Source: a virus. From it: 64,000 bases of DNA. Position 1 is the stretch's first letter. Each line of letters opens with the position of its first letter. A program made the position numbers and the translations under genes. The stretch covers positions 61,547 through 125,546 of IMG/VR virus record IMGVR_UViG_3300028859_000011; one strand, written 5' to 3'. The notes under the pieces are model-generated. The model searched no databases. It saw only the letters and a program-made list of their open reading frames with translations, and was not told the DNA's origin. This document shows positions 6,819-61,639 of this stretch, one piece after another.

Positions 6819-7343
6819 ATGACTGAAAAATTAGATAACTATTTAGTTAAAAAATATCCAAAAATTTTCATAGATCGTTATGAAGGTATGACTAAGACTG
6901 CAATGTGTTGGGGATTTGAACATGGTGATGGTTGGTTTTGGATATTAGATCAGTTATGTTATTCTATTCAAAATTATATAGATAATAATAACGAATATAG
7001 ATCTGATGATAAAAAAATCTCTCAAGTTGTTGCAACTCAAGTTAAAGAAAAATTTGGAACTTTAAGTTTCTATTTTAATGGAGGCGATGAACAAATAGAT
7101 GGTATGGTAAGATTTGCTGAAAATATGTCTGCAAATACTTGTGAATTTTGTGGATCAACTGAAAATATTGGATTTACAAAAGGATGGATATCAACAATTT
7201 GTAAATCTTGTTATGATAATTCAGACGATAGAATTAAAAATAGAATATGGTCTGAACATAAAAACAATCTATCTTATAGTGATACAATAAAAGCAGTAAG
7301 AAAAATTAAACTTGATAAAATAGACAACATTAAAAAAATATAA
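6819..7343 (+). CDS. Conserved-type phage hypothetical protein with CxxC pairs
   Basis: GDGWFWIL, QVKEKFGTL, CEFCG...ICKSC; C-terminal RKIKLDKI tag. Confidence 0.75.
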   Translation: MTEKLDNYLVKKYPKIFIDRYEGMTKTAMCWGFEHGDGWFWILDQLCYSIQNYIDNNNEYRSDDKKISQVVATQVKEKFGTLSFYFNGGDEQIDGMVRFAENMSANTCEFCGSTENIGFTKGWISTICKSCYDNSDDRIKNRIWSEHKNNLSYSDTIKAVRKIKLDKIDNIKKI

Positions 7344-7474
7344 GTCTTATAATCTATCAATGATATTATAGAATTTTAATCAATAATATAGAAAAATATT
7401 ATATTAAACTTTATTTTATATTATTTATATATAGTACAAAGATACAAATATATTTTGATTAAACCAAATAATTA

Positions 7475-8935
7475 TTGAATTTAATGATCAAATCTTATAA
7501 ATTTATCACCAACGCAAATGATATTAAAACAAAACACATTCAGGATAAATTATATCCAGAGTGGCGTAGAGTAGCTGAAGTGTTAATAAATAAACATATG
7601 AATCATTACTATAAATATAATTCAATTTGTATTGATAACTCGCTCTACAAAGACGTTTATACATTTCTAACTGAACGTTATAAAGATGCAATAAATAGAC
7701 AAGTAGTTGGATTGTTTAAATCTAAAGTCAGTAATTTCAAGCGTAAATTCAACAAGATTGTACTATCAAGTAACTTAAGTAACGAAATAAAGAAAGATTT
7801 ATGTTTAGTAAATAAAAGGAATTTATTTTTCATTAATGAAGACATTCATGGTAAAAATCACAAGGTAAATTACGAAACAATTAAACTTGGTCGTTGGATA
7901 TTCAAGAACTTCTTTGGTAAATTACCATCATGCAAAAATATTAACATGGTACTTCAGTATAAAATTGCCGTCATTGAAACACCAACTGGCTTAAATTCTA
8001 ATATAAAATATGTAATTAAATTATCATCAGGAAAAAAAAATATCAAAGGTAAATTTTATTACATTCCTTTACTAAATAATAAATACGCTGACAAATTTGA
8101 AGGTAAACTTAATACTTCTTGTACATTAATATTCAAAGATCATAAATTCAATAGTGTATTGATAACTAAAGAATTAGATATTATTAAACCAGAATTAAGT
8201 AAAGTTAAATTATCGTTTGACATTGGATTAAATATTCTGTTAGCAACAAATAATGGAGAAACCTACGGTAAATGGTACTTGAAAAAGTTAAAGAAATTAG
8301 ATGATCAATTAATGATATTAACTAATCATTTGAAAGAAATTCATGGTAAGTATGTAAAGTTATCTGAGTTTAGTGAATATAATAAATTAGTTAATATGAT
8401 TAGAGATTTCAGTAAAAACGAGATCAATCGGATATTTAATAAAATTTATAAAAAATATAAACCAGAAACCTTAATCATGGAAGATTTAGATTTTAAAGGT
8501 AGTAACATTGGCAAAAAGAATAATCGTTTACTCCATAGATTTGGATTAAGTATTATCAAGAGTAAACTTAATCAATTAAAAATAGATTACGGAGTTAAAA
8601 TTAAATTTATTGATGCAGCTTACTCAAGCCAGACTTGTAGTAAATGTGGATATATAGACAAAAATAATAGAAAATCACAGAAAGAATTTGAATGTCTTTG
8701 CTGTGGTAAAAAAATAAATGCTGATGTTAATGCAGGTAAAACATTATATAATTTCGAAGAACGTTTCGGCGAAAAATTGTTTTACACAGTTAATGACAGG
8801 AATAAGAAAAGAACCCTTTTGATCAATGATTTTATTGACAGTAAGGTATGGACGGATAATGAGAGGCTTATCCAAGCATTAAATAATAATCCTTACAAAA
8901 AAGATTATTATTTAATACTCCGTGAAAAATTATAA
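7475..8935 (+). mobile_element. tnpB: Solo TnpB (IS200/IS605-family RNA-guided nuclease-like)
   Basis: RuvC-I SFDIG, RuvC-II MEDLDF, AAYSSQTCSKCG...CLCCG zinc ribbon, RuvC-III NADVNAG; no tnpA adjacent. Confidence 0.88.
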
Positions 8936-9030
8936 AATTATAAATATTTATATAATTTTCTATATTTTTTACAACTCTCCTGACTTATATCAAAAAATAT
9001 AATCTAAATTAAAATTATAAAATAATTATT

Positions 9031-9534
9031 ATGAGTTATGAAGATATATTAAATGCAATAGAACAATCTAAAGGAAGTTATATTGAGTTAATTATGGATT
9101 CTATCAGTAAATCTTTTTTAATAATGATCAAAAAAGATTTTATTAAATTTGGATATAGAATAATAATAGGCACAGAATATTTATCAGATATCGAAAAATT
9201 AAATAATTTCATAAAAAATATTAATGAAAAAACAATAATTTTTTTTGATAGTATTTTTGTTCCAAAAAATAATGTAAAATTAAATTTATTTCTTAATTCT
9301 AGTTGTATTATAATATTTTTAAGTAAATACTCTAATAGTAAGCATAATTTTAATTTTAATTATACATTATCATTTATGACATCATTAATAATATCAATAG
9401 TATCAAATAATTTAAGAGTATTAAAATCAAGATATACAAATACATATAACAATGAAATTTTAAATATTACCATATTATTAAGAAAAAATAAATTAGAAGA
9501 ACTTGAGTATAACATAAAAAATAATAAAATATGA
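9031..9534 (+). CDS. Hypothetical protein with RKxKL C-terminal tag
   Basis: ORF ending LLRKNKLEELE... Confidence 0.6.
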   Translation: MSYEDILNAIEQSKGSYIELIMDSISKSFLIMIKKDFIKFGYRIIIGTEYLSDIEKLNNFIKNINEKTIIFFDSIFVPKNNVKLNLFLNSSCIIIFLSKYSNSKHNFNFNYTLSFMTSLIISIVSNNLRVLKSRYTNTYNNEILNITILLRKNKLEELEYNIKNNKI

Positions 9535-9929: not shown

Positions 9930-9933
9930 AAAT

Positions 9934-12327: not shown

Positions 12328-14362
12328 ATGCAAATAGATTTTAGAAAAAATAAGAATTTTGGTGATCATGGAGACGTAAGATTAATAACTAAATTTTTAT
12401 GGTACCCATTAATTTTAAAAGGTAGAATGATTTGGATGGAAACCGCAACAATTCAACAAATATGTTTTACTAATCCTTCATATTTATATACCAAAACATT
12501 TTGGATTAATGACTGCTTTGTAAAACAATAAATTACAATAAAATATGAAAAGTAAAATACAAATAATTGATAATCAAGAAGTTATTGTTACACATATAAC
12601 AGAAAAAGATTTCAAAAAAGCAATTAGTCTCATAATTAATAGATGTGATACAATTAAAGATATTTTTAATGAAACATCTTGGTTGTTTTCACCTGCTGAA
12701 GATATTAGTCAGCTATTAGTAGTAACTGAAAAAATAACACATATCAAAAACAAAAAATGAGCAAGAGTAAAATTACAAAAGAATTGATAGATAAAGTAAA
12801 AATACTTTATCCTGATTGCGATGTTTTTAAATCAAGAATTAAACATAACTATATTTGTATTCGTAAATTGTTAGGTCAATCAATATACTATAGAGATGAA
12901 AATAGAACATTTGAATATGATAATACAGAAATTGAATATTTATATGTAGCAGAAGCTATATTAGAAATTAATAAACTATAATATGACAACTAAAAAATTA
13001 AATAATAAAACCTTTATTTTTAAAGATTATAAAGATCCAAAATATAAAGAAATTGTATATGATGGTAAAAAATATCAATATCATCAAGTTGAAGATAATT
13101 GTGGTGAAAAAACATATTTTTACTATAATACTACTTATGCTAGTCATCCTAAATATTTAATATTTGGCCCTATAATTATAAAAACAATTCCAAAATTTAT
13201 ATTCCAAATATATGGTCATATTGAATCTGAAATATTTTCTAAAGATGATATAAGAATGAAGATTCATGAAAAAGTAAATATCATAAATAGAAGAAAAGAA
13301 ATAAAAAGAGGAGAAATAATTTAATATAAAAATATATTAATCATGACATCAAAAGATATTGTAAATAAAATTTTATTTAATGATAATAGAATATTTTACC
13401 TTAACGTAATGCTAAATAGTAATAGATTGATTGATAAAGAATATGTTAATTTAATATATCGTAAATTTGAACTCAAAAAAGAAAATAATATACTTTATAA
13501 AAAATTAGAAGAAAATAGATTAAGAATCGAAAAATTGAAAGAATTAAATAATATATCATGAAATTTAAAGATATTGAAAATGAAATTGTATTTTTAGAGA
13601 AAAAAAGTTTATCTTTGGAATGAATACTTTATAATATAAGTTATAATACAATCGAATTCATTGAGATACGGGAAAAATTTGATAAACTAAATATATATTT
13701 AAAAGAAATAAAAGAAAAATTTGAATTAAATAAATTAAGAATTGAAAAATTAAAAGAATTGAATGATATATGATTGATTATAAAAAAGATGTAAAATTAT
13801 CAAATGAATTCAAAACAGTACACGAACAAATGCAAGATAAATTATATAAAAATGTAAGATTACTATGTAACGTCGAAACAAGACAAAAACAAATATACGT
13901 CACTTTATATAATGAAAAATATTTTAATTATGAATATCCTTATTTTGATGATCATGACTTGATATATAAAGTAGATAATGAAGATTTCTATGAAAATTTT
14001 AAAAAAATAAGAAAAATAAAAAGAGATTATAATAATTCTTATAAACCAATAAAGTTTAAAACTGAATTTGAATGCTTAAAATATTTGAAATCTATCGGAA
14101 TTGATGAAGTTGGTCCGAATAATTAATTAAAAATAAAAATATGAAACAAAAAATTTTAGAAATATTAGGTAAGAATCATACTACGCCATGCGTATTCACA
14201 AATAACCAAGAAGTTGAAGCGATTTATACATATAAAAATGATGTATATTGCTTAGAAATGGGAGAAGATTTTCCTTTTGATGATGTTTCTGAAAAAGGAC
14301 AAAAAAAGATTCTTGATGCTATTGTAAATAATGAATATAAAAAAGATAAAACTTTTCAATAA
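12328..14362 (+). CDS. Operon of small hypothetical ORFs (12328-12531, 12545-12760, 12757-12981, 12983-13324, 13343-13561, 13770-14126, 14141-14362)
   Basis: Tightly packed, often ATGA-coupled ORFs; no recognisable motifs. Confidence 0.65.
13558..13773 (+). pseudogene. Paralog of 13343-13561 interrupted by an in-frame TGA
   Basis: MKFKDIENEIVFLEKKSLSLE*ILYN...KLRIEKLKELNDI; stop at 13621-13623; C-terminus matches the neighbour's RLRIEKLKELNNIS. Confidence 0.7.
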
Positions 14363-16089: not shown

Positions 16090-16129
16090 ATGTCTAAATG
16101 AGATGGTTCGACTCCCACCTAAGTTACAA
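16090..16129 (+). pseudogene. Degenerate tRNA 3' half
   Basis: GGTTCGACTCCCACCTAAGTTACAA closely matches the 3' end of the CAA tRNA (GGTTCGACTCCCATCTCAGTTACAA); no 5' half found. Confidence 0.6.
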
Positions 16130-16667
16130 ATTAAATTTCTTTGATGCTATAATTGATTCCATATCAATTATAGAACTTGACCAATACTTCATTGATCCAT
16201 CATCAGTTTTAACAATTCCTGGTCCGTCGTGAGGTCCAGGATTCATTTTTTTAACTTCATAATCAATTGAAGCCCATCTAAAATTTTCAATTCTTTCTTT
16301 CTTTATTACTTTACACAATTCAGTATTATTCCAACCAAGTAAGCAATAATCTCCAATAGATGGTAGATTTTCCAGATCTTCAATTTTTTTAGAATAGCTT
16401 TTTATTTGTTCACGTTTAACTAAAAAATTGTTATTCCACAATTCATATTTATCAAATTTAACGTTATAGTATTCTGTGTGTTTCTATAGATATTATTTTA
16501 CCTATTCTATATTTATAGTCAGTATCGTTTTTTCTAGGGGTAAAATATTCAGGTATTTTAGATTCATAGAAATCTTCGTTGAGTCTGACGTAATCATTTA
16601 TTTCTGGTTCTGAATCACGTGTAAATTCTTTTGTATTGTAGAATTCAATTTTTTTAATATGTTTCAT
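16124..16667 (-). pseudogene. Tagged protein split by a frameshift (MKHIKKIE ... SKKFNL)
   Basis: One frameshift in an ACACACA tract near 16473-16481 joins track ORFs 16464-16667 and 16124-16441 via EYYNVKFDKYELWNN. Confidence 0.65.
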
Positions 16668-17036
16668 ATGTTATATTTTTTTGCATGTATTTTTAGTTTG
16701 AATATCGTCATATATATCATCAAATGATATAGCTAAAAAATCATCAACTGATAGCATATTTTGCATGTAATCTATTCCATCACCCCAACCTCTTGTAGAA
16801 ACAGAACTGATAGATATTGAATATTCTGAATATTTTGAAACCTCAACAATTATTGCATAATAGCCTGGAGTTTTAACATTCCTTCTTATAGTATGTTCGT
16901 CATTATAACTTAGATTATATGTTTTGAGTTTATCAATAAGTTGTTCTGTTTGTTCGTCTGTTATGCCTTCAATATTTATTGCAAATCTGAATTTATTTTT
17001 AGAACTTTCATTAATGAATTGATTATATTTTTTCAT
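16664..17036 (-). CDS. MKKYNQFINE-family protein; C-terminal tag lies in a shifted frame
   Basis: Paralog of 17422-17856; the alternative frame ends IHAKKYNI* overlapping the next ATG. Confidence 0.7.
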
Positions 17037-17425
17037 AGGTTAAATTTATTTGCGTCATTTTTTAATTTAAAATAATTTTCAACTCCATCTAATCCAACCA
17101 ACAAAAATTCTTCTAATGATATTAAATTTACTTTTACTGAACTACCGAAATCTATACCTGAAATTTTAATATAATTAGTATTATTTATATCATAATACAA
17201 TGATATCTCCTATGAATATTTTGTTGATATTAAAAATTCTTCATTCCAAGAATATAATTTAACATGTTTTTTTATTTCATTTATTGCGGATTTTTTCTTA
17301 TCAATTGTATTATTTGTACTTTTATCAATAACAAATGTAATATTAGGCTCTGATTCAGGTATCATATCTTTACTATCAATTAATATGTAATTATTTTCAT
17401 TAATGAATTGGTTATATTTTTTCAT
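17033..17425 (-). pseudogene. MKKYNQFINE-family protein with an in-frame TAG
   Basis: TAG at 17210-17212; the frame stays open to ...LEEFLLVGLDGVENYFKLKNDANKFNL*, homologous to the neighbours' ends. Confidence 0.75.
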
Positions 17426-17856
17426 ATATTAAATTTATTTGCATCTTTTTTCATGTTGATAATTTCTTCTTTTGCTTTGACAAGTTCTTCAGCTCCTTCA
17501 AATCCAACTTTAAAGAATTCATCTAACGATAATATACATTCCATATAAGTATATCCTGCTCCCCAACGTGGTGTTGTAACTGTTGATATATCTATTCTAC
17601 AACGATTAAAATAATCAGTAATCTCGAATCCTAAAGCCCAAGGAAAGAAAGAATTACTTCCAAAAATATCCTTTTTGTATCTAAGACTCAATAATTCTGA
17701 TTTTCCAAATTCTGAATATTCATCATAATTTACAGATTTTTTGTAAATCATATCAAATAATTTATCAATTTGATCATCTGTGATATTTGTTATATCAACA
17801 GCAAATCTGAATTTATCAGAAATACTTTCATTGATGAATTGTTTATATTTTTTCAT
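17422..17856 (-). CDS. MKKYKQFINE...DANKFNI tagged protein
   Basis: ORF in a tandem paralog array. Confidence 0.8.
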   Translation of the reverse strand: MKKYKQFINESISDKFRFAVDITNITDDQIDKLFDMIYKKSVNYDEYSEFGKSELLSLRYKKDIFGSNSFFPWALGFEITDYFNRCRIDISTVTTPRWGAGYTYMECILSLDEFFKVGFEGAEELVKAKEEIINMKKDANKFNI

Positions 17857-18293
17857 AGGTTAAATTTATTTGCATCTTTCTTAATTTTATAAAGTGTTTC
17901 AACTCCTTCTAATCCAATTATAAGGAAATTATCTAATGAAATTATAAGGTTATTCTCACCTCTCATCTCATCAGATCTCAGTTTTAAAAAATCTATTGTA
18001 TCTCTTGGTATTGCAGAATTGCCCCAACTTTCATATACTTGAATATACCATACCCAGTAATTATTTTTATCTACTGAGAAACGTTTCCAATCAGTATCAT
18101 TATCTCTAATTAATAAACTTTTTATATTGTGAGTTTCTAATGTCACATATTTTCTAAATTCATCAAATGCTTCTTGTTGTCTTTTTTCATCTGCATCTTC
18201 CAATGATATGAAAAATTTAAAATCCATATTATTGGATGCATAATTTTCTCCATATGCTCTATTTTCGTTAATAAATTCTTTATATTTTTTCAT
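17853..18293 (-). CDS. MKKYKEFINE...DANKFNL tagged protein
   Basis: ORF in a tandem paralog array. Confidence 0.8.
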   Translation of the reverse strand: MKKYKEFINENRAYGENYASNNMDFKFFISLEDADEKRQQEAFDEFRKYVTLETHNIKSLLIRDNDTDWKRFSVDKNNYWVWYIQVYESWGNSAIPRDTIDFLKLRSDEMRGENNLIISLDNFLIIGLEGVETLYKIKKDANKFNL

Positions 18294-18757
18294 ATATTAA
18301 ATTTTTCAGCTTTTTTTATCATTAGATATTTTTGATATTGTTTTGGATATTCATCTATTATTTTCTTTTTATCATTAAGTTGTAAATATGTCAAAAAATC
18401 ATTACCAAGATTGTCTTTTAGATTCCAATTCGCATTAGATTCTATTAATACTTTTACTATATTAATATTTTCTCTTAATGTAGCATACTGTAATGCGGTT
18501 CTATCATATATATCTTGATAGTTTATATCAGCGCCTTTTTCTATTAAATACTCAACCACGTCTATTCTATTATTATCTGCTGCTAATATTAATGGTGTAT
18601 AATTATTATTTTCTATAATATTTATATCAATTTTTTCAACTTCTATATATTCTTTAACAACTTCTAAATCTCCCCTTCTACAAGCTTCAAATATACTAAT
18701 ATCACTATTGAAAAAGATATCAGAATATCTATCTTCAAATGTTTTTATAAATTTCAT
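18290..18757 (-). CDS. Ankyrin-repeat protein (MKFIKTFE...KAEKFNI)
   Basis: TPLILAA...VVEYLIEKGADIN; RTALQYA...IVKVLIESNA. Confidence 0.9.
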   Translation of the reverse strand: MKFIKTFEDRYSDIFFNSDISIFEACRRGDLEVVKEYIEVEKIDINIIENNNYTPLILAADNNRIDVVEYLIEKGADINYQDIYDRTALQYATLRENINIVKVLIESNANWNLKDNLGNDFLTYLQLNDKKKIIDEYPKQYQKYLMIKKAEKFNI

Positions 18758-19371
18758 ACCGCAGTTTTATTTTTTAATTTTGAAATTGCTTGTTTTATAA
18801 TATCTATTGTTAAGTTATTAATTTCAAATATATTAAAATCTCCTTCAATTTCTGTATTATGAGGATGTTCAATTTTAATTGACACTTTACTTAATGGTTT
18901 ACTCCCAATAACTTTTTGAGAGTCTTCTACTAATATATCAACAAATTTCCATTTATCACTTGATGAATTAACAAATATTATATCATCATATTTGAAACCA
19001 TAATGATCTAACCATTTTTTAGCAGCATTTTTAGATTCTTCAGTTGGTTGTTTAGTTATAATGTTTAATGTATATCCATAAGTTTTCACAAAGTCATATA
19101 TATTATTAACTGTATCAACTGCTCCTTTATATGGTTGAGCTATATCAAACACTTCAGCTTTTTTATTATTGAACCAAGTTTTAGATGATTCACCGTTATA
19201 ATCCATAGTTTCATACCAATGCCAATTTTGATCACTAGTTATTTCTTTATCAGGAAAATATCTTTTATATAGTGTATTATAAGAATTAACAAAATCACAT
19301 ATAGTACCATCAATATCGATTCCTATTGTTACTTTATTAGTAAATGTTTCAAATAATTTTAGATGTTTCAT
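18754..19371 (-). CDS. 5'(3')-deoxyribonucleotidase (NT5C-like HAD)
   Basis: IGIDIDGTICDF motif I, IITKQ, ILVEDS; N-terminus MKHLKLFETF. Confidence 0.85.
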   Translation of the reverse strand: MKHLKLFETFTNKVTIGIDIDGTICDFVNSYNTLYKRYFPDKEITSDQNWHWYETMDYNGESSKTWFNNKKAEVFDIAQPYKGAVDTVNNIYDFVKTYGYTLNIITKQPTEESKNAAKKWLDHYGFKYDDIIFVNSSSDKWKFVDILVEDSQKVIGSKPLSKVSIKIEHPHNTEIEGDFNIFEINNLTIDIIKQAISKLKNKTAV

Positions 19372-19394
19372 ATTTTAATTAAAATTTTATATAT

Positions 19395-19454
19395 TATATA
19401 TAAATTTTTAAGCTAAGATTTATTTTAAAAATGAGTTATATTTTTTTATATATA
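19395..19454. promoter_or_regulatory. Divergent pair of TTTATATATA motifs (candidate phage late promoter)
   Basis: Minus strand 19395-19404 before 19371; plus strand 19445-19454 before 19481; the motif recurs before many other genes. Confidence 0.55.
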
Positions 19455-19480
19455 ATATAATAAAAAACAACTTAACTATA

Positions 19481-19675
19481 ATGAAAACAAAACTAGAAAA
19501 CCTATTAAGTTTTACTGATTTTACTGGTAACTATAATTCACAGCAAGCAACTAAAACTAAAAGAACAGACACTGGAGTAGATGTCATAAAAGAAAATAAT
19601 GAAGAGAATATCGAAGATAATATTGAAGATAAAGATTATTCTACTGAATTTGATTCTGAACTTGAAAAAGATTAA
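19481..19675 (+). CDS. Small acidic protein
   Basis: MKTKLENLLSFTDF N-terminus, D/E-rich tail. Confidence 0.6.
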   Translation: MKTKLENLLSFTDFTGNYNSQQATKTKRTDTGVDVIKENNEENIEDNIEDKDYSTEFDSELEKD

Positions 19676-19870
19676 TATATATTTAATTAACAAAAAAATA
19701 TAGAATTGAAATTATTCTATATTTTTATATAATTCACATATTGCTATTCCAGTTATTATATCATATGATATTATTTCTCCTATGATTTCAGTTAAATTTT
19801 CTTCTGATACAACTGTGCCTATAACATCATCCATTATTAATTTTTTTTCAAGTTGAATTTTTATTTCCAT

Positions 19871-20062
19871 TTAATATTCATTTAATTTTTTAAGTTTTAA
19901 TTTTCTTAATTCTGATTGATCATAATAGAATATAGCAATAGTTATATAATCATCATCTTGAGTTTGAGTGACATTGAATATTTCAATATTACTAGTAGAC
20001 AACCATTCATTTATTTTTTCTTCTAATGTAGTTTTATTAGAATTTATAATCTTACATTTCAT
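19871..20062 (-). CDS. Small protein with RKLKLKKL tag
   Basis: ORF ending ELRKLKLKKLNEY. Confidence 0.65.
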   Translation of the reverse strand: MKCKIINSNKTTLEEKINEWLSTSNIEIFNVTQTQDDDYITIAIFYYDQSELRKLKLKKLNEY

Positions 20063-20175
20063 TATTTAAAAATATTTTTATACATTATATATTATAAGTT
20101 ATGCATTCAAATTAAAAATTAACTCATATTTATAATAATAAAAAATTATATATAATTAAAATATAAAAAATATCA

Positions 20176-20439
20176 ATGAGTAAAAATAATTTAATTTTAA
20201 TTTCTAAACCTAATACCACCAAATATTACATTAATTTTTTAAAGACTACTGGAAAAATAGCATTAGAAATTGATAATAATGAAATTTATATGTTATCAGA
20301 AGATAATAATTTTTTAATAATGGAGAATGGCTCATATGAATTAAATGAAATTTATAATAATGAAATTTATATGTTATCAGAAGATAATAATTTTTTAATA
20401 ATGGAGAATGGCTCATATGAATTAAAAGAAATTTTATAA
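20176..20439 (+). CDS. Probable structural accessory protein with an internal 27-aa duplication
   Basis: NNEIYMLSEDNNFLIMENGSYEL occurs twice; 73 bp identical at a period of 81 nt. Confidence 0.6.
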   Translation: MSKNNLILISKPNTTKYYINFLKTTGKIALEIDNNEIYMLSEDNNFLIMENGSYELNEIYNNEIYMLSEDNNFLIMENGSYELKEIL

Positions 20440-20497
20440 TTGATAAAATTTATTTTAATTATAAAATTTATATATAATATAAAATAATTAACAAAAT

Positions 20498-20938
20498 ATG
20501 AATAGCGAAAAACAATCAAAATTATGGATAAATAATAACTGGGTATATTTCAAAATAAAAATTGGTACGTACACTAATATTATCACATTTTTAGATGATA
20601 ATAATATATCTTTTATTAAATATAATTATATTGATTTTACTAAAATTCCAAGTGTTATATATGGTTACGGTAAGAGTACAAATTTATTAGAATATTTATC
20701 TAATAATAATAACAATGGAAATTTAATAATATCATTTTTAAATTATTTTTTAAATAGTTTAAAATTTAGTTATATTGATGGATCAGCAATAAGAATATTA
20801 ATGGTGAATAATATAGATTGGAAAATTTCAAATGTAATAGTTATAAAAAATAATTGGAAGTATTTTACAGTTGATACATCATTTTTTACCGCAGATAATA
20901 GTATAATTACAGCAGATAAAACAATTATTACAATATAA
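20498..20938 (+). CDS. Probable structural accessory protein
   Basis: C-terminal FTVDTSFFTADNSIITAD motif; lies in an operon with the fibre gene. Confidence 0.55.
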   Translation: MNSEKQSKLWINNNWVYFKIKIGTYTNIITFLDDNNISFIKYNYIDFTKIPSVIYGYGKSTNLLEYLSNNNNNGNLIISFLNYFLNSLKFSYIDGSAIRILMVNNIDWKISNVIVIKNNWKYFTVDTSFFTADNSIITADKTIITI

Positions 20939-20962
20939 TTATTTCATAAAAAATAAAAAAAT

Positions 20963-23992
<3,030 letters not shown>

Positions 23993-23996
23993 AAAT

Positions 23997-24025
23997 AAAA
24001 GAGTAGATTTTAAATCTACTCTTTT
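23997..24025. terminator. Bidirectional terminator
   Basis: aaaagagtagattt-t-aaatctactctttt between convergent genes. Confidence 0.8.
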
Positions 24026-24612
24026 TACATATTAAATTTTTTAGAATCTCTATATAAAGGATAATATTTAGTATTAATTTCATCATATTCTTTCCAACTC
24101 GTTTGAAATATATATCCAAAATTTTCTACATATTTATTATTTTTAGCCATATCTATAAATAGTTTGTGATAATTTATACATCTATTAATAAAAAATTCCC
24201 CTTTCCCTATAATAGAGCTAATTAAATCTAAATAACCATCATCTGATGGCATAAAGGCTGAATATTTATTATCTAGCCAAGTAGGTTTAAAATATAAATA
24301 AAGTTCTTCTATTAACTTATCATATTCATTTTTAAAATTCATAAGAGTATTATATTCAAAATTTTTGAATACTCTTATTTTCAATTTTAATTCTTCTTCT
24401 TTATCTTTATTTTCAAATTCATCCTTAGTTTTAATTATTTTATTCCAATCAACTACACGTATAAAATTCCAAAAATCATCACTATAATTATTAACATTAG
24501 GCTTATTAATTCTAATAATATCACCGTTACTAGTTATAGTTATCAAATTACCATTTTTATCATAATGCTCATTGTACTCTATATTTTCAAATATTTTAAA
24601 AATTGTTATCAT
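24025..24612 (-). CDS. Tagged hypothetical protein (MITIFKIFE...SKKFNM)
   Basis: ORF with both terminal tags. Confidence 0.75.
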   Translation of the reverse strand: MITIFKIFENIEYNEHYDKNGNLITITSNGDIIRINKPNVNNYSDDFWNFIRVVDWNKIIKTKDEFENKDKEEELKLKIRVFKNFEYNTLMNFKNEYDKLIEELYLYFKPTWLDNKYSAFMPSDDGYLDLISSIIGKGEFFINRCINYHKLFIDMAKNNKYVENFGYIFQTSWKEYDEINTKYYPLYRDSKKFNM

Positions 24613-24616
24613 ATTA

Positions 24617-25771
24617 TTACATATTAAATTTATTTGTATCTACGATAAACATATATTGTTTAAATTCTTTTTTAATTTCTGAATCTAATATGAAATTAGA
24701 ATTTAGTTTTTTTAACGCATCAGCTATCAAATCACCTTTTTCTTCTTCTGTACTATCATCATAACCGTTTTCTTTTACATATTCTTTTATATATCTTTTT
24801 TGAAATTCATATTCATCTGAAATATCATCATTATGCTCATCTTTATCTTCAAATATTTCAAAAAGTAACAATGTAAGATTATCTGAATCATTAAAATTAT
24901 CCATTAAATAATGTTGTATTTCTATGCTATTTGCAATTTGATATTTTATCCAATCAGATTTAGTATCATCATTTTCAAATTTTTTATAATTTTTTACAAG
25001 TTTATCATCATCTATATATGAACTAAAATTTTGATAAAATTTTTTAGGAGTCATATCTTTAATAAGTTCTGATAAATTATCTACACAATATATTTCTACT
25101 AATAGTTCGGTAAAATATCTACCTTCATATCTATCTCTGATCATTTCATCAAAAAAATCTACTTCATCAGTATATTCTTGTATTACATATTTTAATTGAT
25201 CTGAATCTAAATCATCTATCATATCAGAATCATATTCCACATCATTACTTTTTGCAATAATAGTATCATAACTAATTTCATCTCCATCTTCAACCAAAAT
25301 AAAAAAATTATTAGGTATTTCATATTCCTCAGTAGAATCACCTTCAGTTATTACAATTTTTCGTATATCATCATTTTCTATAATAGAAACTATTCCATCA
25401 TATTCAGTTTTTATAATTTTTTCACTATCATTATTTTCACAATAATATTCAATTATTTTATTCTCCATTTCTATAGTTAAATGATTTTCTATATAATCTT
25501 TAAATTCTTGATCATCAAAATCATCCATTGATGAATTATTAATTTCATTTTTTATAGTATCTTCAACATATTTATCACTATCAAAAACTCCAGATATTAT
25601 ATTTGGATCATTTGTTATTATATCAATAATATCACTCTCATTATAATTAGTCAAATAGTGTTCATCATAATAATTTGATATATAATCATTATCTAAAAAT
25701 TCATTTACTAATTCATATTTTGAGCTATCTGCACTCTCAAATAATTTAAATTTTTTAAAACTTACTATCAT
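24617..25771 (-). CDS. Very acidic tagged protein (MIVSFKKFKLFE...DTNKFNM)
   Basis: 384-aa D/E-rich ORF with both terminal tags. Confidence 0.8.
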   Translation of the reverse strand: MIVSFKKFKLFESADSSKYELVNEFLDNDYISNYYDEHYLTNYNESDIIDIITNDPNIISGVFDSDKYVEDTIKNEINNSSMDDFDDQEFKDYIENHLTIEMENKIIEYYCENNDSEKIIKTEYDGIVSIIENDDIRKIVITEGDSTEEYEIPNNFFILVEDGDEISYDTIIAKSNDVEYDSDMIDDLDSDQLKYVIQEYTDEVDFFDEMIRDRYEGRYFTELLVEIYCVDNLSELIKDMTPKKFYQNFSSYIDDDKLVKNYKKFENDDTKSDWIKYQIANSIEIQHYLMDNFNDSDNLTLLLFEIFEDKDEHNDDISDEYEFQKRYIKEYVKENGYDDSTEEEKGDLIADALKKLNSNFILDSEIKKEFKQYMFIVDTNKFNM

Positions 25772-25895
25772 ATTTTTTATTTTGTTATATCTTTAATTTT
25801 TATTATGATTAAATGCTATTTTAATAATATCTATTGATATTAATTATAATAGATGATGAAACTATTCATTATATAAATACAACTCTTAAAACTCA

Positions 25896-26720: not shown

Positions 26721-26723
26721 TTA

Positions 26724-29863: not shown

Positions 29864-29874
29864 TTTTATTTTTT

Positions 29875-43610: not shown

Positions 43611-44952
43611 TAGAGCATAATATTTATGATGATGAGTTAGATAATTGTGCATATGCATGTTATAAAAAATATTATAAAAAAAGAAATCATGATAGTACTT
43701 CTATAATAGATAAAGATTTCTTTATACGTCATAGAAAAATTTTATCTGAATATTATAAACAAGCAGAAAAAATTTTAAGAAAAAAGAAATTAGAAAAAAT
43801 AATAAATCATGTTCAATAATAAAATTGAAAATATAGATGATATTGCATATAAATTATATGCAAAAAAGAATTTCATATGTGGTAATATTACACGTAGTCT
43901 TTCTAAAATTATTTTTGAAATTAGTTATGATAATGATTCTGAATATTATAAAAAAGCAGAAATTATTATAAAAAATAAAAAACTTATTATAAGAAAAAAA
44001 AATTAGAAAAAATTAATAGAATAGAAAAAATTAATAATATATGTTCAAATTTAAGAAGAAAAAATGAAAATATAGATGATATTGCATATAAATTATATAT
44101 ATCTGATATCAAAGAAATAACTGGAGATAATTATTCTATATATTTAGATATGAATTATAAGTTGCTCAGTATAAACCTATTTGTAGCTTATCGTCATGAT
44201 GTATTATTTGGTGATTATTATTATAAAAAACAGAAAATATTATAAGAAAAAATAAATTAGAAAAAATTAATAGAATAGAAAAAATAATAAATCATGTTCA
44301 ATAATAAAATTGAAAATATAGATGATATTGCATATAAATTATATGTTACTAATATTACAAATATATATTTAGAACAGCATATTTATAGAAGTGTTATATA
44401 TCTTGATTTTAATTCTTTTATTTTTGATTCAATTTTTGAAAATAACTATGAAATTTATTATAAAATTTATTATGATAAAGCAAAAAATATTATTAGAAAA
44501 AGAAAAATAAAAAAATTAAATGATATTTAATAAAAATATAGGAAATTGGTATAAAAAATCTACATATTTAGATGATGTAGTTTACCAATTATATTTAGAT
44601 GAAATAAAAAATACTAACGATGAAAATTATCCTGGTTATCAAGAATATTTAATTGCTGTTCATATTAAATATAAAAATAATCAAATTGAGAATGCATATA
44701 ATATAGCAAAAAATATTATAAGAAAAGAAAAAATTGAAAAATTGAATGAAGAAAATATTTAAATATACAGAATTAGAATATATTGCATATGAATTATATA
44801 GAACAGATGAAAAAATATTAGATATTAAAACTTTAAATATTAAAATATTTACAATTTGCCATGATATATTTAAATTTGAAAATGAATATTATAAAAAAGC
44901 TGAACATATTTTAAGAAATAAAAAATTAAAAAAATTAAAAAATGAAAATTAA
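43607..44952 (+). CDS. Tandem DDIAY-family array (43607, 43809, pseudogene 44041-44304, 44294, 44520, 44746)
   Basis: Each has [DE].[IL]AY.LY near the N-terminus and YY.KA..I[IL]RK.K[LI].K[LI] at the C-terminus. Confidence 0.8.
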
Positions 44953-48443: not shown

Positions 48444-48695
48444 ATGGAAGCAATTTATAGTACAAGTGATTACATTGAAATGATATTCATGTTAGTAATG
48501 ATGATAGTTTTAACAATTGTTATTAAATATATTCATGGTGATTTTTCAGCAGAATCAATTGAAATTGTCAGCAATGATGAATTATCAATCACAAATGATA
48601 AAGGAGATGTAATTGGTAAAAAATATATCAATACATATAAATATACATATAAAAATGGAAATGTTAAATATAAAACTAAAATTGTTAAATTATGA
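48444..48695 (+). CDS. Membrane-anchored hypothetical protein
   Basis: N-terminal TM helix. Confidence 0.6.
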   Translation: MEAIYSTSDYIEMIFMLVMMIVLTIVIKYIHGDFSAESIEIVSNDELSITNDKGDVIGKKYINTYKYTYKNGNVKYKTKIVKL

Positions 48696-49027
48696 TAACA
48701 TCACCAACCAGATTAGATGATATAGCATATGAATTATATGTGAATAATAATATTTTTAAAAGACATGATCCACTATCATCAATTCATTTTCGATATAGTT
48801 ATTATAATAAAAAGGAATATAAGAGAAATATCTTATATAGATATTGAAAAAATTTATAATCGAGCAACAAAATATTTAAGAAAATTAAAACTAATTGAAT
48901 TAGAAAATGCCTAAATTATAATGAAATGTATAACGATAGAAAATTAGATGATATCGCATATGAATTATTTTCAAATAGTTATATTAATATAGGATTACTT
49001 GTACCATTAGGAAAAGATAGTGTATGA
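48692..49027 (+). pseudogene. Two decayed DDIAY-family copies (48692-48914 frameshifted; 48926-49027 truncated)
   Basis: RLDDIAYELY...[fs]...RATKYLRKLKLIELENA*; RKLDDIAYELF...*. Confidence 0.7.
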
Positions 49028-52080: not shown

Positions 52081-53705
52081 ACAGTAAATTGTTTAATCAA
52101 AAAAAAATAATAAAGTTTGTTGATAAATTTAATAGAAGAAGAAAATTACAAAATATAAATAAAATAATATGAGTATAACAGCTAAAATGATTTGCAATCC
52201 AGGTGCAGGTAAATTTCGCATTAATGGTAGTTCATTTTCAGGTACAATTGAAAGCGCAAAAATGAATCCTTATCAAGCAGAATTATTATTGAAAGATATG
52301 AATATATCAGATATTGAAAGATTTTTAAGAAAAAATAAATTAAATAATATTAATAATATTAATAAATAATTATGCCACATAAATCATCTTGGACAACTGA
52401 AATTAGTAATGAAATTAATATGTCTACATCAGATAAAATTGAGAGATTTATTAACTATGCATCAAAAGAAGTAATCAATAATTTATTAGAAAAATTTGAT
52501 ATTAAAGATGTTGAAAATTTTTTAAGAACTAAAAAATTAAAAAATTTATCAAATGAATTATAATTTAGAACATAATATAGATGAAATAGCATATGATTTA
52601 TATTTAAAATCATGTGGTAAGAATGAATTTACAATTGGATTTAGTTCTTATTTATATATTAGATATTATGGTAATAATTCAAGTAAAATAATACTCGATA
52701 ATTATATTAAAGCAAATAATATTTTAAGAAAATTAAAATTAGAAAAATTAGAAAATGTTAATAGATAAGTCAATAGGTAATTGGTGTGAAAAAGGAGAAT
52801 CAGATGATATAGATGATATTGCATTTCAGTTATATTTAAATTATTATTATGAAACATATAATTCATTCAGTCAAGCTGAACAATATATGTTTATGACATT
52901 AAGAAAAGACCAGCAACGTGATAATGCTAAATTATATCGATTTTATAAAAAAGCGTATAATATATTAAGAAAATTAAAATTAGAAAAATTAGAAAATGAG
53001 TACAAATTATGATGATATATATTCAAATCTTATTATAGATAAATCAATAGGAAAATGGTCTAATGATCGTTTATATTCTGAACTTGAAGATATGTTTTAT
53101 CAGATATATATTCATTGGTATTATCATGAATATATTATTGATAATCCTTATGACAATCATTCATTAGAATCTCAATCTTGGTTTATATCTTATTTAAATA
53201 CATCAGAACATAAAAATGATGGATCTTATGATTTATATTATAATAAAGCAAATAGCATATTAAGAAAAAATAAATTAGAAAAAATAAAAAATGCAGAATA
53301 ATTTCAAAACTGTTGATAAAGCAAATAATTTCAAACCTGGTGATAAAGTAATATGCATTAATATTCCAATAAATTCAAAATTAATTATTAGTGCATTATA
53401 CACAATATATGATGCGAATAACATTTATGTTAGATTAATTGAGGATGATAATAAAGGTTATTATAGATATTCAAGATTTAAACCAGATATTAAATCAAAC
53501 AGAAAATTAAAATTAAAAAAAATAAATGAATAGCGAGGATGATTTAATTGAATATTTTATAAAAAAATTATATATAACATCTGGTGTACCAAAAAAATAT
53601 TTATATCCTGATCCACTTGATTCTATTAATTTTAATGTAATTTTAAAATATGTAAGAAAAAAGAAATTATATTATATAAAAAATAATAAATTGAATGATG
53701 AATAA
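52077..53705 (+). CDS. Run of eight small RKxKL-tagged ORFs (52077-52172, 52169, 52372, DDIAY-family 52553/52755/52996, KOW-like 53291, 53526-53705)
   Basis: Ends include RRRKLQNI, LRKNKLNNI, LRTKKLKNL, LRKLKLEKL twice, LRKNKLEKI, NRKLKLKKI, VRKKKLYYI. Confidence 0.75.
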
Positions 53706-57066: not shown

Positions 57067-57663
57067 ATGTTTTATAAATTACGAGATTACGCTAAAAAAT
57101 TTAATGTCTGTTACAGGACTGCCTGGAATAGATTTAATAAAGGATTAATAACTGGAGCATTTAAGGACGAAATGGGTAACATTTTAATTCCAGTTAAAGA
57201 AATGGATCATAATAAAAATATTAACGTGGCTTTATATGCTAGAGTATCAAACAATTCAGCAAAGGAAAATCTTAATAGACAAATAGAAAAAATAGAAGAT
57301 TTTTCCATAAAAAATGGATATATAATAAAATATAAAGTGACTGAAATTGCATCAGGTATGAACGATACTAGACATAAATTATGTAAATTATTGTCTAAAG
57401 ATGATTGGGATATACTTATAGTTGAAAATAAAGATAGATTAACCAGATTTGGCTTTAATTATATAGAATTATTATTAAACTTAAACGGTAAAGAAATTAT
57501 AGTAATAAATCAAACTAATAAAGATAAAGACACTAAACAAGATTTAATATCGGACCTTGTTAGTATAGTTTATTCCTTTACTGCCAGAATATACGGATTA
57601 AGAAAAGGACGAGATAAAGGAAAGCAATTAAAAAATATAATAACAGATAATGTACCTGACTGA
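57067..57663 (+). CDS. tnpA: IS607 serine-recombinase transposase
   Basis: N-terminal MerR-like HTH, ALYARVS, IVENKDRLTRFGF, DLVSIVYSFTARIYG. Confidence 0.93.
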   Translation: MFYKLRDYAKKFNVCYRTAWNRFNKGLITGAFKDEMGNILIPVKEMDHNKNINVALYARVSNNSAKENLNRQIEKIEDFSIKNGYIIKYKVTEIASGMNDTRHKLCKLLSKDDWDILIVENKDRLTRFGFNYIELLLNLNGKEIIVINQTNKDKDTKQDLISDLVSIVYSFTARIYGLRKGRDKGKQLKNIITDNVPD

Positions 57664-58840
57664 AATACATAATATAAAGAAAACAAATAAATTATATAAA
57701 GAAATAGATGATCTGTGTTTTTTGTCTAAAAACTTATATAACTCATGCCTTTATTCAGTTAGGCAATACTATTTTATCAATAAATTATACCTTAATTATA
57801 ATGCTGTAAATCGTATTTTTATTGATACTAATCAACCAGATTATATTAAATTACCAAGAAAGGTTTCTAATCATGTTTTACAACAAGTAGATAAGTCTTT
57901 TAAATCATTCTTTAAATTACTTAAGATTAAAGATAAATTAAATGGTAAGCCTAAAATACCTTATTATAAACATAAAACTAATGGCCGTAATATATTATCA
58001 TATGAATTAGGTGCTATTTCACACAAAGAATATCTGAATGGTTATATAAAACTATCAGGTACTAATATTATAATACCTTTTATAAATAAAGATAGAGGAA
58101 AATTAAAAGAAGCAAGGATAATTCCTTGTTTGAATTCATATAAGATAGAAATAATATATGAAGTCACTGAAAAAGAATTGATGATAAATGATAATAAAAT
58201 AGCTATTGATCTTGGAATTAATAATTTATGTGCAGTAACTAATAATATTAATGAAGAATATTTTATAATCAATGGTAAACCATTAAAATCAATAAATCAG
58301 TATTATAATAAAATGCTTGCAAAATATAAAAGTGATTTACCAAAGAATATTTATACATCTAATAAAATAAGGAAATTAACGAATAAGAGAAATGATAAGA
58401 TAAATTGTGAAATTCACAAGGTCACAAAATATCTTGTGAGCTGGTGTGAGGAGCACAACGTATCAAATATTATAATTGGATATAATAAAGAGTGGAAAAA
58501 TGAATGTAATATGGGTAAGAAAAACAATCAAAAGTTTATTCAAATACCATACCTTGATCTATTAAATACATTAAAGTATAAAGCAAGGTTAGTAGGAATA
58601 GATATAATATTGACGGAAGAATCTTTTACCAGTAAATGTTCGTTTTTTGATCATGAAGAGATGAAACATCATAATAATTATCTCGGAAAAAGAATTCATA
58701 GAGGACAGTTTAAAACAAACGAAGGATTTAAAATTAACGCAGATATGAATGGATCATTAAATATATTTAAAAAAGTAGTTCCCGAATTTATTGAAGGGAA
58801 TAGAGGGTTCGCAGTCAACCCAAGAAAAGTCACGTTATAG
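57650..58840 (+). CDS. tnpB: IS607 TnpB
   Basis: SKNLYN HTH, AIDLGINNL, EESFTSKCS, INADMNGSLNI. Confidence 0.93.
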   Translation: MYLTEIHNIKKTNKLYKEIDDLCFLSKNLYNSCLYSVRQYYFINKLYLNYNAVNRIFIDTNQPDYIKLPRKVSNHVLQQVDKSFKSFFKLLKIKDKLNGKPKIPYYKHKTNGRNILSYELGAISHKEYLNGYIKLSGTNIIIPFINKDRGKLKEARIIPCLNSYKIEIIYEVTEKELMINDNKIAIDLGINNLCAVTNNINEEYFIINGKPLKSINQYYNKMLAKYKSDLPKNIYTSNKIRKLTNKRNDKINCEIHKVTKYLVSWCEEHNVSNIIIGYNKEWKNECNMGKKNNQKFIQIPYLDLLNTLKYKARLVGIDIILTEESFTSKCSFFDHEEMKHHNNYLGKRIHRGQFKTNEGFKINADMNGSLNIFKKVVPEFIEGNRGFAVNPRKVTL

Positions 58841-59103
58841 ACTTCCTAAAGTTTTTGATAGAAACTTTCTATAATTTTCTATTTAAAAACAAACTGTATT
58901 AATATTGGAGAAGTAGCTAAATTTAAACAGGTTAGATGTGAATGTGGTGAATTCCAAGATAGTCGTAATAAAGCTTGGACCAATTCTATTAATTTTTCAG
59001 ATGTTGATCATATTGAAAAAGAACTGAATGAATCCGTTAAAGTAGAAGATTATGAAAATGTAGCATTTTTAATAGATATTATGATAAAAATGAATACATA
59101 ATT

Positions 59104-60460
59104 ATGATAATATTTCATATTTGTACTATTATTTCTGATATATGTGCTATTATAACAATTCTTTTATGTAATGCCGCTATATTAAATAAATTAACAGAGC
59201 CACATGAAAATGTAGAATGTTTATATAAATATTCATATAATGAAAATTATTTAGGTTGTAAATGGTTTTATATTTTTATTGTGCTTAATGTAATATGTTA
59301 TTTGTTTTATAAAAAAATTAAAAAAATAAGATTACTAGATTATTATAAATATAAAATTAATTTTTATGAAGATTTATTAATTGATAAAGATTTTTATGAT
59401 AAAAATGAAATAAATATTTTTAATAAATATATTAGTAAATATAAAAGATTATTAAAATTAGAACAATTAAAATAAATTAAATTATGAAAAAAGATAAATT
59501 GATACCATTTTTTAAAATAATTGGAACATTTCAATTAATATCATTATCAGCAATTGTCATGACATTTTTATTTAATGTTAATTATATTCAATCTAATTGT
59601 ATGTATTTTATTACGATTTCAGTAATAATTCAATTATCAATACTAATTATTTCAGCATTAGTTTGTATTATTGTATATTTTATGATGCAACTTTCAAATA
59701 ATAAATATGAGGAATTTAGAAAAAATATTCCTGAATATATTTATAAATCTGAAATATATTCAACTGAACCTATATCAGACAAATCAGAAAAAATAATCAT
59801 ATCAGATATAACTGATAACTGTTATATTAATGGATATGGAAATTATGATCCTAATAATCCTTAATTTATGTCAAACAATAGTCCAGATTTACCTGAATAT
59901 GTTTATATTCATAATGTTGAATATAATACAATAACAGAATCATTACCATTAAAAAGTGATGATTTAATTGTCATTTCAATTAATCCGTTAAATGATAAAG
60001 CATTGAAAGTTAAATTGTCAACTATTAAAAAAAACTGTTATATTAATGGATATGGATATTATGAACCGTAAAAAAATAAAAAATAAATATGGAATATTGT
60101 AATGTTGAGATTCAAATTGATTTATTTGATTATAAACGAAGTTTTTTAAAAAATATAAATACTGATGATCTTGAATATGAATTAAAAAGGCGTAAAGAAG
60201 AAGATATTTACATTAATGATAAAAAAATATTATATCATGATATTGATATTGATTTAAGTGATTTTGAAACAGATATATTAGATAAATTATATAATGATGA
60301 ATTATCAAATGAATTGAAAAATAGAGGATTTATTGTACTTGGAAAAAATGAATATCCGCCGACAAATTTAGCAACAAAAAATGATATTTGTAAAATATTA
60401 GGATTGAGAGAATGGTCAACTAAAGAACAGATTCTTAATGAACTAAATAACATATTATAA
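59104..60460 (+). CDS. Four hypothetical ORFs (59104 membrane, 59484 membrane, 59868, 60089)
   Basis: 59484 and 59868 share PEY.Y...NCYINGYG.Y.P; 59104 ends KRLLKLEQLK. Confidence 0.65.
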
Positions 60461-60461
60461 T

Positions 60462-61639
60462 ATGTTTAAACAAGGAGATAAAATAGTTAATAAATCAGGT
60501 AATTTCAAAATTTATACATTTAAATCATATTATCACCATAATATAGAAGCTAATGCATTTCTTGTTTATGAAGATAATAGATTCCATTTCTTTGATGATT
60601 ATTTTAATGATATTAAATATGAGTATATTTTATTATCTGAATATAGAAAGCAGAAACTTAAAAAATTAAATATATGCTCACAAATTTAGATATTAAAAAA
60701 ATTAAAATAGGTGATAATGTTATTTGTATTAATATAGCTATTACCAGTAATCTTTTGAAATTAAATAAATCATATGAAATTCAAGAAATTCTTCTTAACA
60801 CCAGTGGTAATTATTTATTTAAATTAGTTGAAATCGATAAGTATCCTTTCTTAATTGAAAGATTTATACTTGATTTAAAAACGATAAGAAAAAATAAATT
60901 ATCTAAAATCTTAGCTAATGATTGATATAGAAAATATTAAAATAGGTGATCTTGTTATTGTTATTGATAATAGTAATATTTTTTTGAAATTACATAAATC
61001 ATATGAAATTAAAGAAATTATACCTTTTTATGATATCGATGCTTATTTTCATTTTAATATTTTAAAAATGATGAACATATATTCAATTGATAGATTTATA
61101 TTTGATTTAAAAGCAATTAGAAAAAATAAATTATCTAAAATATTATATAATGCTTGATTCTAAAAATATTAAAATAGGTGATACCGTTATTTGTATTAAT
61201 AATACAAATAATGAAAATAAATTAACAATTAATAATAAATATACAATTAGTGAAATATTTGATATCAAATACTTAAATTATAATAGATATTTTGTAATAT
61301 TATTAGAAACTGGTAATATTAAATATTATTTATATAGATTTAAGTTAGATATTAAAACTATCAGAAAAAATAAATTATCTAAAATATTATCTAATGATTG
61401 ATGTTAAAAATTTAAAAAAAGGCGATTATGTAGTTGTTATTAATAACAATAACACTATATTAGAATTAGATAAAACTTATAAAGTTAAACAAATTTTATA
61501 TAGTATTAAATTTGATAAATATTATATAACTTTGATTGGACATAATGATTTAATATATAGATTTAGAAGATTTAAATTAGATATTAAAACAGAAAGAAAA
61601 CATAAAATAGAAAAAATTAAAAATTATGAAAGTATATAA
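60462..61639 (+). CDS. Tandem array of five KOW/SH3-like small paralogs (60462, 60674, 60918, 61150, 61394)
   Basis: K.GD.V.[CV]I.N...L.....Y.[IV]....RF..D.K..RK.K[LI].KI. Confidence 0.8.

Follow-up and report, generated by a model that had tools for sequence, protein, structure and literature searches.

Why should 28 open reading frames (ORFs) in one stretch of viral DNA end in nearly the same eight residues? The stretch is a 64,000-nucleotide window, a term that here means the whole of it, and comprises bases 61,547–125,546 of the 125,546-bp IMG/VR virus record IMGVR_UViG_3300028859_000011, whose completeness rating is about 18%. Its ORFs of at least 40 amino acids (aa) were searched for the pattern R[KNT]xK[LI]xx[LI], hereafter the tag. 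In the 28 tagged ORFs the motif ends 2–18 residues ahead of the stop codon, with a distance of 2–9 residues in 26 of them and of 12 and 18 residues in those at 41855–42208 and 39639–39944, respectively. All 26 tags that had been listed in an earlier note on this DNA are present, and two more were found, RKLKLIEL (48765–48914) and RKKKLYYI (53526–53705), the former in an ORF that is the 3' part of a frameshift-split gene.

Across the whole record, a gene set free of overlaps has the motif within 20 aa of the C-terminus in 40 of 238 ORFs and internally in one, compared with a mean of 0.15 and a maximum of 2 C-terminal matches in 500 residue shuffles; the reversed motif does not occur in the record. 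A profile built from the tags adds about eight degenerate tails, e.g., RIEKLKEL at 13343–13561. The tag is thus real, as the earlier note had proposed, and is strongly enriched over the whole record, whose part adjacent to the window is tagged as well. Its limitation to about 30 small early genes, proposed in the same place, did not hold: in a related complete genome (G001, see below) about 11% of the ORFs carry the tag, on both strands and along the entire genome. The claim that the tag never occurs together with a KFN[LIM] terminus was borne out, as 19 ORFs have this ending and none of the 19 has the RKxKL tag. These 19 proteins with [N/K]KFN[L/I/M]-COOH ends are encoded at 16124–27400 of the window (minus strand) and in the upstream part of the record, and most of them begin with MK[YK][LY]KxF[EI]NE or MITxFKIFE. 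The leader MKKYKEFINE (17853–18293) is closely similar to the capsid-targeting sequence (CTS) of T4 internal proteins.

Residue preferences were counted in 2,408 ORFs from AT-rich related loci and this record. Position 1 is Arg in 369 cases and Lys in 69, though Lys is four times commoner, and position 4 is Lys in 312 cases and Arg in a single one. At position 5 we find Leu 278 times, Ile 34 times and neither Val nor Phe, with Leu (TTA) favored over the more A-rich and commoner Ile, while Leu and Ile are about equally frequent at position 8, and positions 2 and 7 prefer Lys and tolerate other residues. The independently sampled G001 has the same pattern (107 Lys vs. 4 Arg at position 4, 107 Arg vs. 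12 Lys at position 1). Positions 1, 4, 5, and 8 correspond to i, i+3, i+4, and i+7 and lie on a single helix face; the specificity is stereochemical and goes beyond mere charge. The extended logo of the related loci reads F-I-x-[IL]-K-E-[ILY]-R-K-x-K-L-x-K-[LI]-N with the stop codon 3–6 residues on, and across these loci the distance from the tag to the C-terminus is 0–18 residues, with variable tails. Net charge is about +3.7 per 13 residues, and the hydrophobic moment (0.24 ± 0.11, 328 tags) is below that of shuffled tags (0.31) and of the Escherichia coli MinD sequence (0.41). With its basic and aliphatic residues on the same face, the helix does not qualify as amphipathic as the term is normally understood, contrary to how it had been described at first.

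The tagged genes of the window are the following, where a gene is called coupled if the downstream gene starts within −30 to +5 nucleotides (nt) of its end:

6819–7343, plus strand: 174-aa protein with a CxxC...CxxC core; tag RKIKLDKI at 7299–7322; uncoupled, next start 131 nt downstream
9031–9534, plus strand: 167-aa protein; tag RKNKLEEL at 9481–9504
13343–13561, plus strand: 72-aa ORF; degenerate terminal tag RIEKLKELNNIS in which Lys2 is replaced
19871–20062, minus strand: 63-aa protein, the sole minus-strand case in the window; tag RKLKLKKL at 19883–19906
39639–39944, plus strand: 101-aa protein; tag RKLKLEKI at 39864–39887, 18 aa from the end
41520–42208, plus strand: two paralogs of 110 and 117 aa; tags RKDKILEI at 41817–41840 and RKEKLDEI at 42146–42169; ortholog in contig L041 also tagged
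42381–43151, plus strand: four-gene array of 65–69-aa helical proteins; tags RKRKLIEI at 42540–42563 and RKYKLIKL three times, at 42736–42759, 42917–42940, and 43107–43130; last gene uncoupled
43437–43819, plus strand: two DDIAY-class genes; tags RKQKLEKL at 43575–43598 and RKKKLEKI at 43778–43801
43809–44293, plus strand: two decaying DDIAY copies, 43809–44006 with a degenerate tail and ~44064–44293 start-less and frameshifted
44294–44952, plus strand: three DDIAY-class genes; tags RKRKIKKL at 44495–44518, RKEKIEKL at 44721–44744, and RNKKLKKL at 44914–44937
48692–48914, plus strand: frameshifted DDIAY gene with head 48692–48847 and tail ORF 48765–48914; tag RKLKLIEL at 48879–48902
52169–52563, plus strand: two proteins of 63–66 aa; tags RKNKLNNI at 52328–52351 and RTKKLKNL at 52525–52548
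52553–53301, plus strand: three DDIAY-class genes; tags RKLKLEKL at 52727–52750 and 52968–52991, RKNKLEKI at 53263–53286
53291–53705, plus strand: SH3-like member and 59-aa singleton; tags RKLKLKKI at 53501–53524 and RKKKLYYI at 53655–53678
60462–61639, plus strand: five-gene array of SH3/KOW-like barrel proteins of 75–83 aa; tags RKQKLKKL at 60645–60668, RKNKLSKI at 60887–60910, 61119–61142, and 61363–61386, and RKHKIEKI at 61595–61618

Several DDIAY genes are irregular. The frame of gene 43437–43610 stays open upstream (43230–43436) through a (D/I)VPT repeat and a DDIAY-like IDRLAYNFY, without ATG, GTG, or TTG, so that translation may begin at a non-canonical start here, unless the gene is a remnant. 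In the copy at ~44064–44293 the tag (IIRKNKLEKIN) is out of frame with its own body, and a truncated copy (48914–49027) follows the frameshifted gene 48692–48914.

What precedes the tag is diverse. BLAST of the tag-less bodies grouped those of this record into five small families and 26 singletons, and the tag-less cores of 329 tagged ORFs into 160 clusters, the largest of which has 83 members including the window genes 53291 and 60674–61639. An AlphaFold2 model of 61150–61398 (pLDDT 82) predicts a five-stranded SH3/KOW/Tudor-like barrel followed by a tag helix (residues 68–81). Its best structural matches in Foldseek and VIA (uL24, NusG KOW, and SH3 domains, Z 6.2–6.5, and also small uncharacterised phage proteins) are those of a generic fold. 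For the DDIAY-class protein 52755–53009 the model is a bundle of three helices (pLDDT 78, rising above 90 along the tag) in which the tag forms the distal half of the last helix (58–83); Foldseek and VIA searches with this model gave no structural match. A body-only hidden Markov model (HMM) of the barrel class retrieved 101 ORFs, 92 with the strict and 4 with a loose tag, and that of the DDIAY class 19 ORFs, 15 with the strict tag. Orthologs in other contigs also keep it. Within these families the tag is thus close to obligatory, and it is shared by different folds, as far as the models predict them. That unrelated families and singletons share it had been stated in the earlier note, and the two predicted folds and the 160 clusters agree with this.

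Known domains are rare among the tagged proteins. Pfam (E < 0.01) and PHROG (E < 0.001) scans of 10 + 10 + 10 of them gave no match, and an ESM Atlas look-up gave no usable match. Larger tagged proteins had Pfam matches in 5 of 56 and 6 of 72 cases, all on the bodies and none on the tag. Those with known domains in related loci are gp32-like, DUF6794, and DUF6011 proteins; an Acb3-like CBASS inhibitor, a Dam-type methylase, and a 5'-3' exonuclease of G001 match a loose form of the motif, possibly by chance.

Is it the peptide or the DNA beneath it that is maintained? In 30 of the 40 tagged genes of the record the next start lies 25–59 nt past the Arg codon, most commonly at 25 nt, an offset at which the next ATG comes from AAT-GAx of Asn9-Glu/Asp10. 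The A fraction upstream of these tag-overlapping starts is 0.64, compared with 0.53 at other coupled starts. For these 30 genes the tag DNA does double as the initiation region of the next gene, as had been suggested, yet this leaves the motif unexplained: 63 gene pairs are coupled without a tag, and 10 of the 40 tagged genes are uncoupled, several of them being followed by hairpin and T-run sequences. Positions x3 and x6 are about as variable as the cores (identity 0.19 vs. 0.24) between flanking positions that are fixed, and this whole-codon periodicity is unlike an RNA element. When codons of the tag were compared with those of the bodies of the same genes in 329 non-identical tagged ORFs, Arg was found to be encoded by AGA, AGG, CGA, and CGT, and Leu by TTA, CTT, CTA, and TTG, with shares equal to those in the bodies (TTA 66% in both, p = 0.91). 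On the coding strand the DNA pattern of the tag occurs 12 times, in frame in every case, and the opposite strand has none. The motif is thus selected at the protein level, and the explanation that would have undone the earlier note, namely codon bias and translational coupling acting alone, is at odds with the ten uncoupled tagged genes and the use of synonymous codons.

One family found in two related contigs (L015 and L107) bears the motif internally, at residues 39–46 (FWFYDExYIRKxKLCKLNN), followed by another domain and without a gene junction at that place. The motif therefore needs no free C-terminus. These proteins could have arisen by read-through fusion, since the stop/start junctions overlap. 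They are 120–205 aa long (L107:1853–12443 and the L015 family), and the C-termini in L107 have 1–5 tandem repeats of ~20 residues containing LSDTTKLNVYTP.

The tag is widespread in a group of very large phages. Scanning IMG/VR with a DNA pattern that contains it in frame yielded more than 107 stretches, nearly all on contigs of 20–27% GC and up to 330–640 kb, with 408 ORFs ending in the tag and runs of 20–24 consecutive tagged genes on four contigs (L037, L100, L011, and L098). When the same DNA pattern was applied to 120 cellular genome stretches as a control, it gave 13 C-terminal and 27 internal matches, never two per locus; these were scattered single chance matches in unrelated taxa, and the scan indicated neither a host nor tagged host proteins. 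G001 is a complete genome of 639,979 bp with terminal repeats. In it R..K[LI]..[LI] ends 107 of 986 ORFs, compared with 2.3 in shuffles, and the tagged ORFs occur genome-wide on both strands, mostly in clusters of 2–5. The variant of this lineage is R-K-x-K-[IL]-x-x-[IL]-[FL], followed by acidic residues and the C-terminus. As it differs after the motif, the four core residues have been kept while their surroundings and codons differ. The head genes of G001 include those for a portal, a protease, and a major capsid protein that is gp23-like, and we therefore regard the clade as giant phages whose heads are of the T4 type. Among 5.8 billion proteins, a profile search retrieved 110 relatives of the barrel class, all of them unnamed metagenomic proteins and some on contigs of 617 and 711 kb, and a tblastn search with one tagged protein in 50,697 deposited phage genomes had no match.

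What might such a peptide do? An invariant helix face of two basic and two aliphatic residues recurs on unrelated folds and for this reason we read the tag as a portable C-terminal docking helix recognised by one common partner, a reading to which we give an even chance. In this reading the tag, a short C-terminal α-helix (R1-K2-x-K4-[L/I]5-x-x-[L/I]8) capped by Asn here and followed by Phe or Leu in the distant lineage, would offer the face with Arg1, Lys4, Leu/Ile5, and Leu/Ile8 to this partner. The two basic residues would pair with acidic groups of the partner and the two aliphatic ones would fill a small groove, while the variable body in front would have the specific task, e.g., to bind a target or to inhibit it. 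In this way dozens to ~100 proteins of the phage, which differ from one another, evolve fast, and are for the most part small and probably early, would be linked to a single hub or place. From the proposal of a shared docking helix in the earlier note, the portable protein-level helix on unrelated bodies has thus been retained and its amphipathic character has not; that the tag binds a partner is what we infer. Grafting of the tag onto new cores and recombinational shuffling, which the note had also suggested, stay hypothetical, as only decaying and frameshifted copies came to light.

Several results weigh against docking. No partner of the tag was found, and in the barrel model the pLDDT of the tag helix is only 65–72, so that the helix could in principle pack on its own body. 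The IMG/VR scan used a pattern that contains the tag and some of the counts derived from it are therefore inflated, for which G001 and the core-only HMMs serve as unbiased checks. Furthermore, coupling is commoner among tagged (30 of 40) than among untagged genes (63 of 198), and AGA, AAA, and ATA are moderately over-used in the tag, in part through ascertainment by a DNA search pattern that contains these codons. Because of the coupling and the codon use, an added benefit at the RNA level has to be allowed for.

A more tentative extension of the docking proposal is possible, in which a clade of AT-rich phages of 0.6–0.7 Mb with T4-type capsids would have tagged ~10% of its proteins for a single dedicated receptor, in a code distinct from that of the CTS-like head cargo. 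As receptor one may think of a host hub, or of a protein that serves a compartment for replication or takeover as its importer or its scaffold. If true, this would be a phage counterpart of sorting by nuclear localisation signals (NLS) or PRANC motifs, with effectors recruited by acquiring the tag.

Shared address peptides have precedents. In T4, the CTS of the internal proteins IPI–III and Alt is an N-terminal leader of ~10 residues that ends in a protease site ([L/I]-x-E) and is cleaved off. As in T4, whose capsid type G001 shares (gp23-like), a short terminal address peptide is common to otherwise unrelated phage proteins. The CTS, however, is N-terminal, cleaved, and found on late packaged proteins, whereas the tag is C-terminal, of another sequence, and found in early-looking operons, and in this record CTS-like leaders occur on the separate set of 19 proteins that are never tagged. 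Ankyrin-repeat proteins of poxviruses carry a PRANC/F-box-like C-terminal motif of ~40 residues whose partner is Skp1/SCF. These too are large, fast-evolving viral families in which variable target-binding bodies are joined through one conserved C-terminal motif to a single host hub; they differ in belonging to viruses of eukaryotes and in having a longer motif with a known partner, the tag being 8–9 residues long and found in phages.

The sliding-clamp-binding tails of T4 and RB69 are short C-terminal peptides through which several proteins dock on a ring-shaped hub. Docking of the tag on a sliding clamp was considered and rejected: in G001 the C-terminal piece of the family B DNA polymerase (PolB) keeps the classical ending ...GFFSSIFDF, without R-x-x-K-[LI]-x-x-[LI], and the clamp motif is thus separate from the tag. 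No gp45-type clamp (PF09116) was found in G001, a result that is uninformative. The polymerase of G001 appears to be split into two distant genes (514604–516571 and 634646–636127), and a five-gene tagged array (517515–519207) follows the C-terminal piece.

Among other explanations, the tag could be an affinity tail, i.e., an Arg/Lys-rich helix by which many small proteins, and some DNA enzymes too, hold on to DNA or RNA non-specifically. Its net charge would suit this role, the SH3/KOW/Tudor-like barrel and the three-helix bundle are common nucleic-acid-binding folds, and a gp32-like single-stranded DNA-binding protein is tagged, with looser matches in the Dam-type methylase and the 5'-3' exonuclease. 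We nevertheless consider it rather unlikely: Arg hardly ever takes the place of Lys4, and Lys seldom that of Arg1, while phosphate contacts usually interchange the two, Leu/Ile is conserved on the same face, and the enzymes match a loose motif of which about 2 such cases are expected by chance.

Alternatively, the tag might be a structural closing helix kept by descent. A single runaway gene family would have diverged or been overprinted in its bodies and preserved its 3' end, which would stabilise tiny domains and carry the start of the next gene. Tandem arrays with decaying and frameshifted copies, the near-obligatory tag within families, the coupling of 75% of tagged genes, and the prolongation of a core helix by the tag in the three-helix-bundle model all speak for such a history. 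It is made doubtful by the tagging of two different folds and of larger proteins with known domains, by the uncoupled genes that retain the tag, and by the same four residues in the distant G001 despite differing downstream residues and codons; moreover, a helix that packs on its body should co-vary with it and not stay constant on all bodies.

C-terminal basic peptides are also known as turnover signals, among them the ClpX C-motif-2 class (e.g., RRKKAI at the end of MuA) and the tail of SspB, LRVVK. The tag could accordingly be a degron or tether read by a host AAA+ protease, which would time the lifetime of the proteins or deliver their targets to degradation. Its near-C-terminal position, the early appearance of the genes, and the resemblance of [L/I/Y]-R-K-x-K to L-R-x-x-K are in line with this idea. 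Tails that vary in sequence and extend over 0–18 residues argue against a strict C-terminal degron, as does the internal motif of the L015/L107 family, and such a signal is in our opinion improbable.

Docking in the capsid interior would imply that tagged proteins are packed in the head and injected, their tag acting in the manner of the helix at the C-terminus of gp8, the scaffolding protein of P22, in which Y292, R293, and K296 hold the protein to the coat protein (PMC9965877). The end of gp8 (...ETYRKLKAKLKGIR, PDB 2GP8) is likewise a basic C-terminal helix that contains Y-R-K-L-K, the only string it has in common with the tag, with a functional Arg, a Lys three positions later (an i/i+3 basic pair), and a similar C-terminal position. 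After Lys4, however, it continues with A-K-L-K and the tag with L-x-K-L, there is one such protein compared with about 100 per genome here, and gp8 has no significant sequence match to the tag, being missing from tag-profile and single-sequence searches of PDB sequences at E values up to 10. Furthermore, the portal, the 804-aa protease (possibly a protease-scaffold), and the gp23-like capsid protein of G001 are all untagged, no separate scaffolding gene having been identified there, the tagged genes stand behind host-type promoter strings among small early-looking genes, and the KFN[LIM]-ended family, whose leaders are CTS-like, already fits the part of head cargo. We hold this reading to be quite improbable.

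Very little favors a membrane-targeting helix of the MinD/FtsA type. The tag resembles the C-terminal basic helices of ~10 residues in the MinD and FtsA sequences, and a charge-weighted discriminant (0.944 μH + 0.33 z) averages 1.44, but its hydrophobic moment is lower than those of shuffled tags and MinD, only two aliphatic residues and in this lineage no aromatic ones are conserved, the conserved basic residues share the Leu face, and lipid binding needs no such sequence invariance. Least credible of all, and contradicted by the data, is the view that the tag simply results from AT-rich codon bias together with an A-rich initiation region belonging to an overlapping next gene, to which the 30 overlapping starts with their raised A fraction and the slight over-use of AGA and AAA would point, but not the 40 tags where shuffles give 0.15, the 63 coupled pairs without tag and 10 tags without coupling, the alternation of variable and invariant whole codons, the preference for TTA-encoded Leu at position 5, the internal motif of one family, or the 12 forward, in-frame, and 0 reverse occurrences of the DNA pattern.

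The motif is undescribed in Pfam, PHROGs, PDB sequences, and the literature that we searched, which contained no description of it or of shared C-terminal tags in huge phages. When PDB sequences were searched with the tag profile, nothing was returned but a mitochondrial ATP synthase subunit and an uncharacterised protein of 98 residues (5GJL), in which a helix matches by chance. Terminal address peptides as a concept are already known from the T4 CTS, the P22 scaffold tail, and poxvirus PRANC. Here one motif marks about a tenth of a proteome, across unrelated folds and more than 100 metagenomic contigs. Huge phages consist largely of small orphan genes that resist annotation, and the tag provides a common experimental handle for them. 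If the partner were a host hub or a phage-built compartment, this would represent a new sorting or adaptor system in bacterial viruses and also a portable protein-delivery tag for Bacteroidota-type hosts.

Sigma-A promoters of Bacteroidota are of the type TTTG, 17–23 nt, TAnnTTTG. Intergenic −33/−7 strings of this type are found at 5994, 36544, 46271, 48402, 49508, 51669, and 54440 of the window. Several of them precede tagged operons, and to this extent the placement of such operons behind host sigma-A promoters in the earlier note stands; in total there are 12 strings where 8.3 are expected, which is not above chance. Because of this total, we can do no more than infer that the tagged genes are early and the host of Bacteroidota type. 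Near-identical promoter-like strings (TTTGGTA...TTATCTTTG) occur between genes on the plus strand at 4514–4613, 5994, 10783, 14367, 36544, 51669, and 54440.

The window has a GC content of 19–29% and mainly TAA stop codons, and its larger genes are phage-like. They include an NAD-dependent DNA ligase and, on the minus strand at 28367–32878, an operon of two AAA+ (MoxR-like) ATPases and a DUF2201 metallopeptidase/VWA-like protein. To this operon the similarity with the only deposited phage that has any at the DNA level, a 462-kb uncultured phage (LR756500.1), is confined. Two TnpB/Cas12f-like (OrfB_IS605) genes are also embedded in the phage genome, at 7475–8935 and 57650–58840, the second amid a block of small genes.

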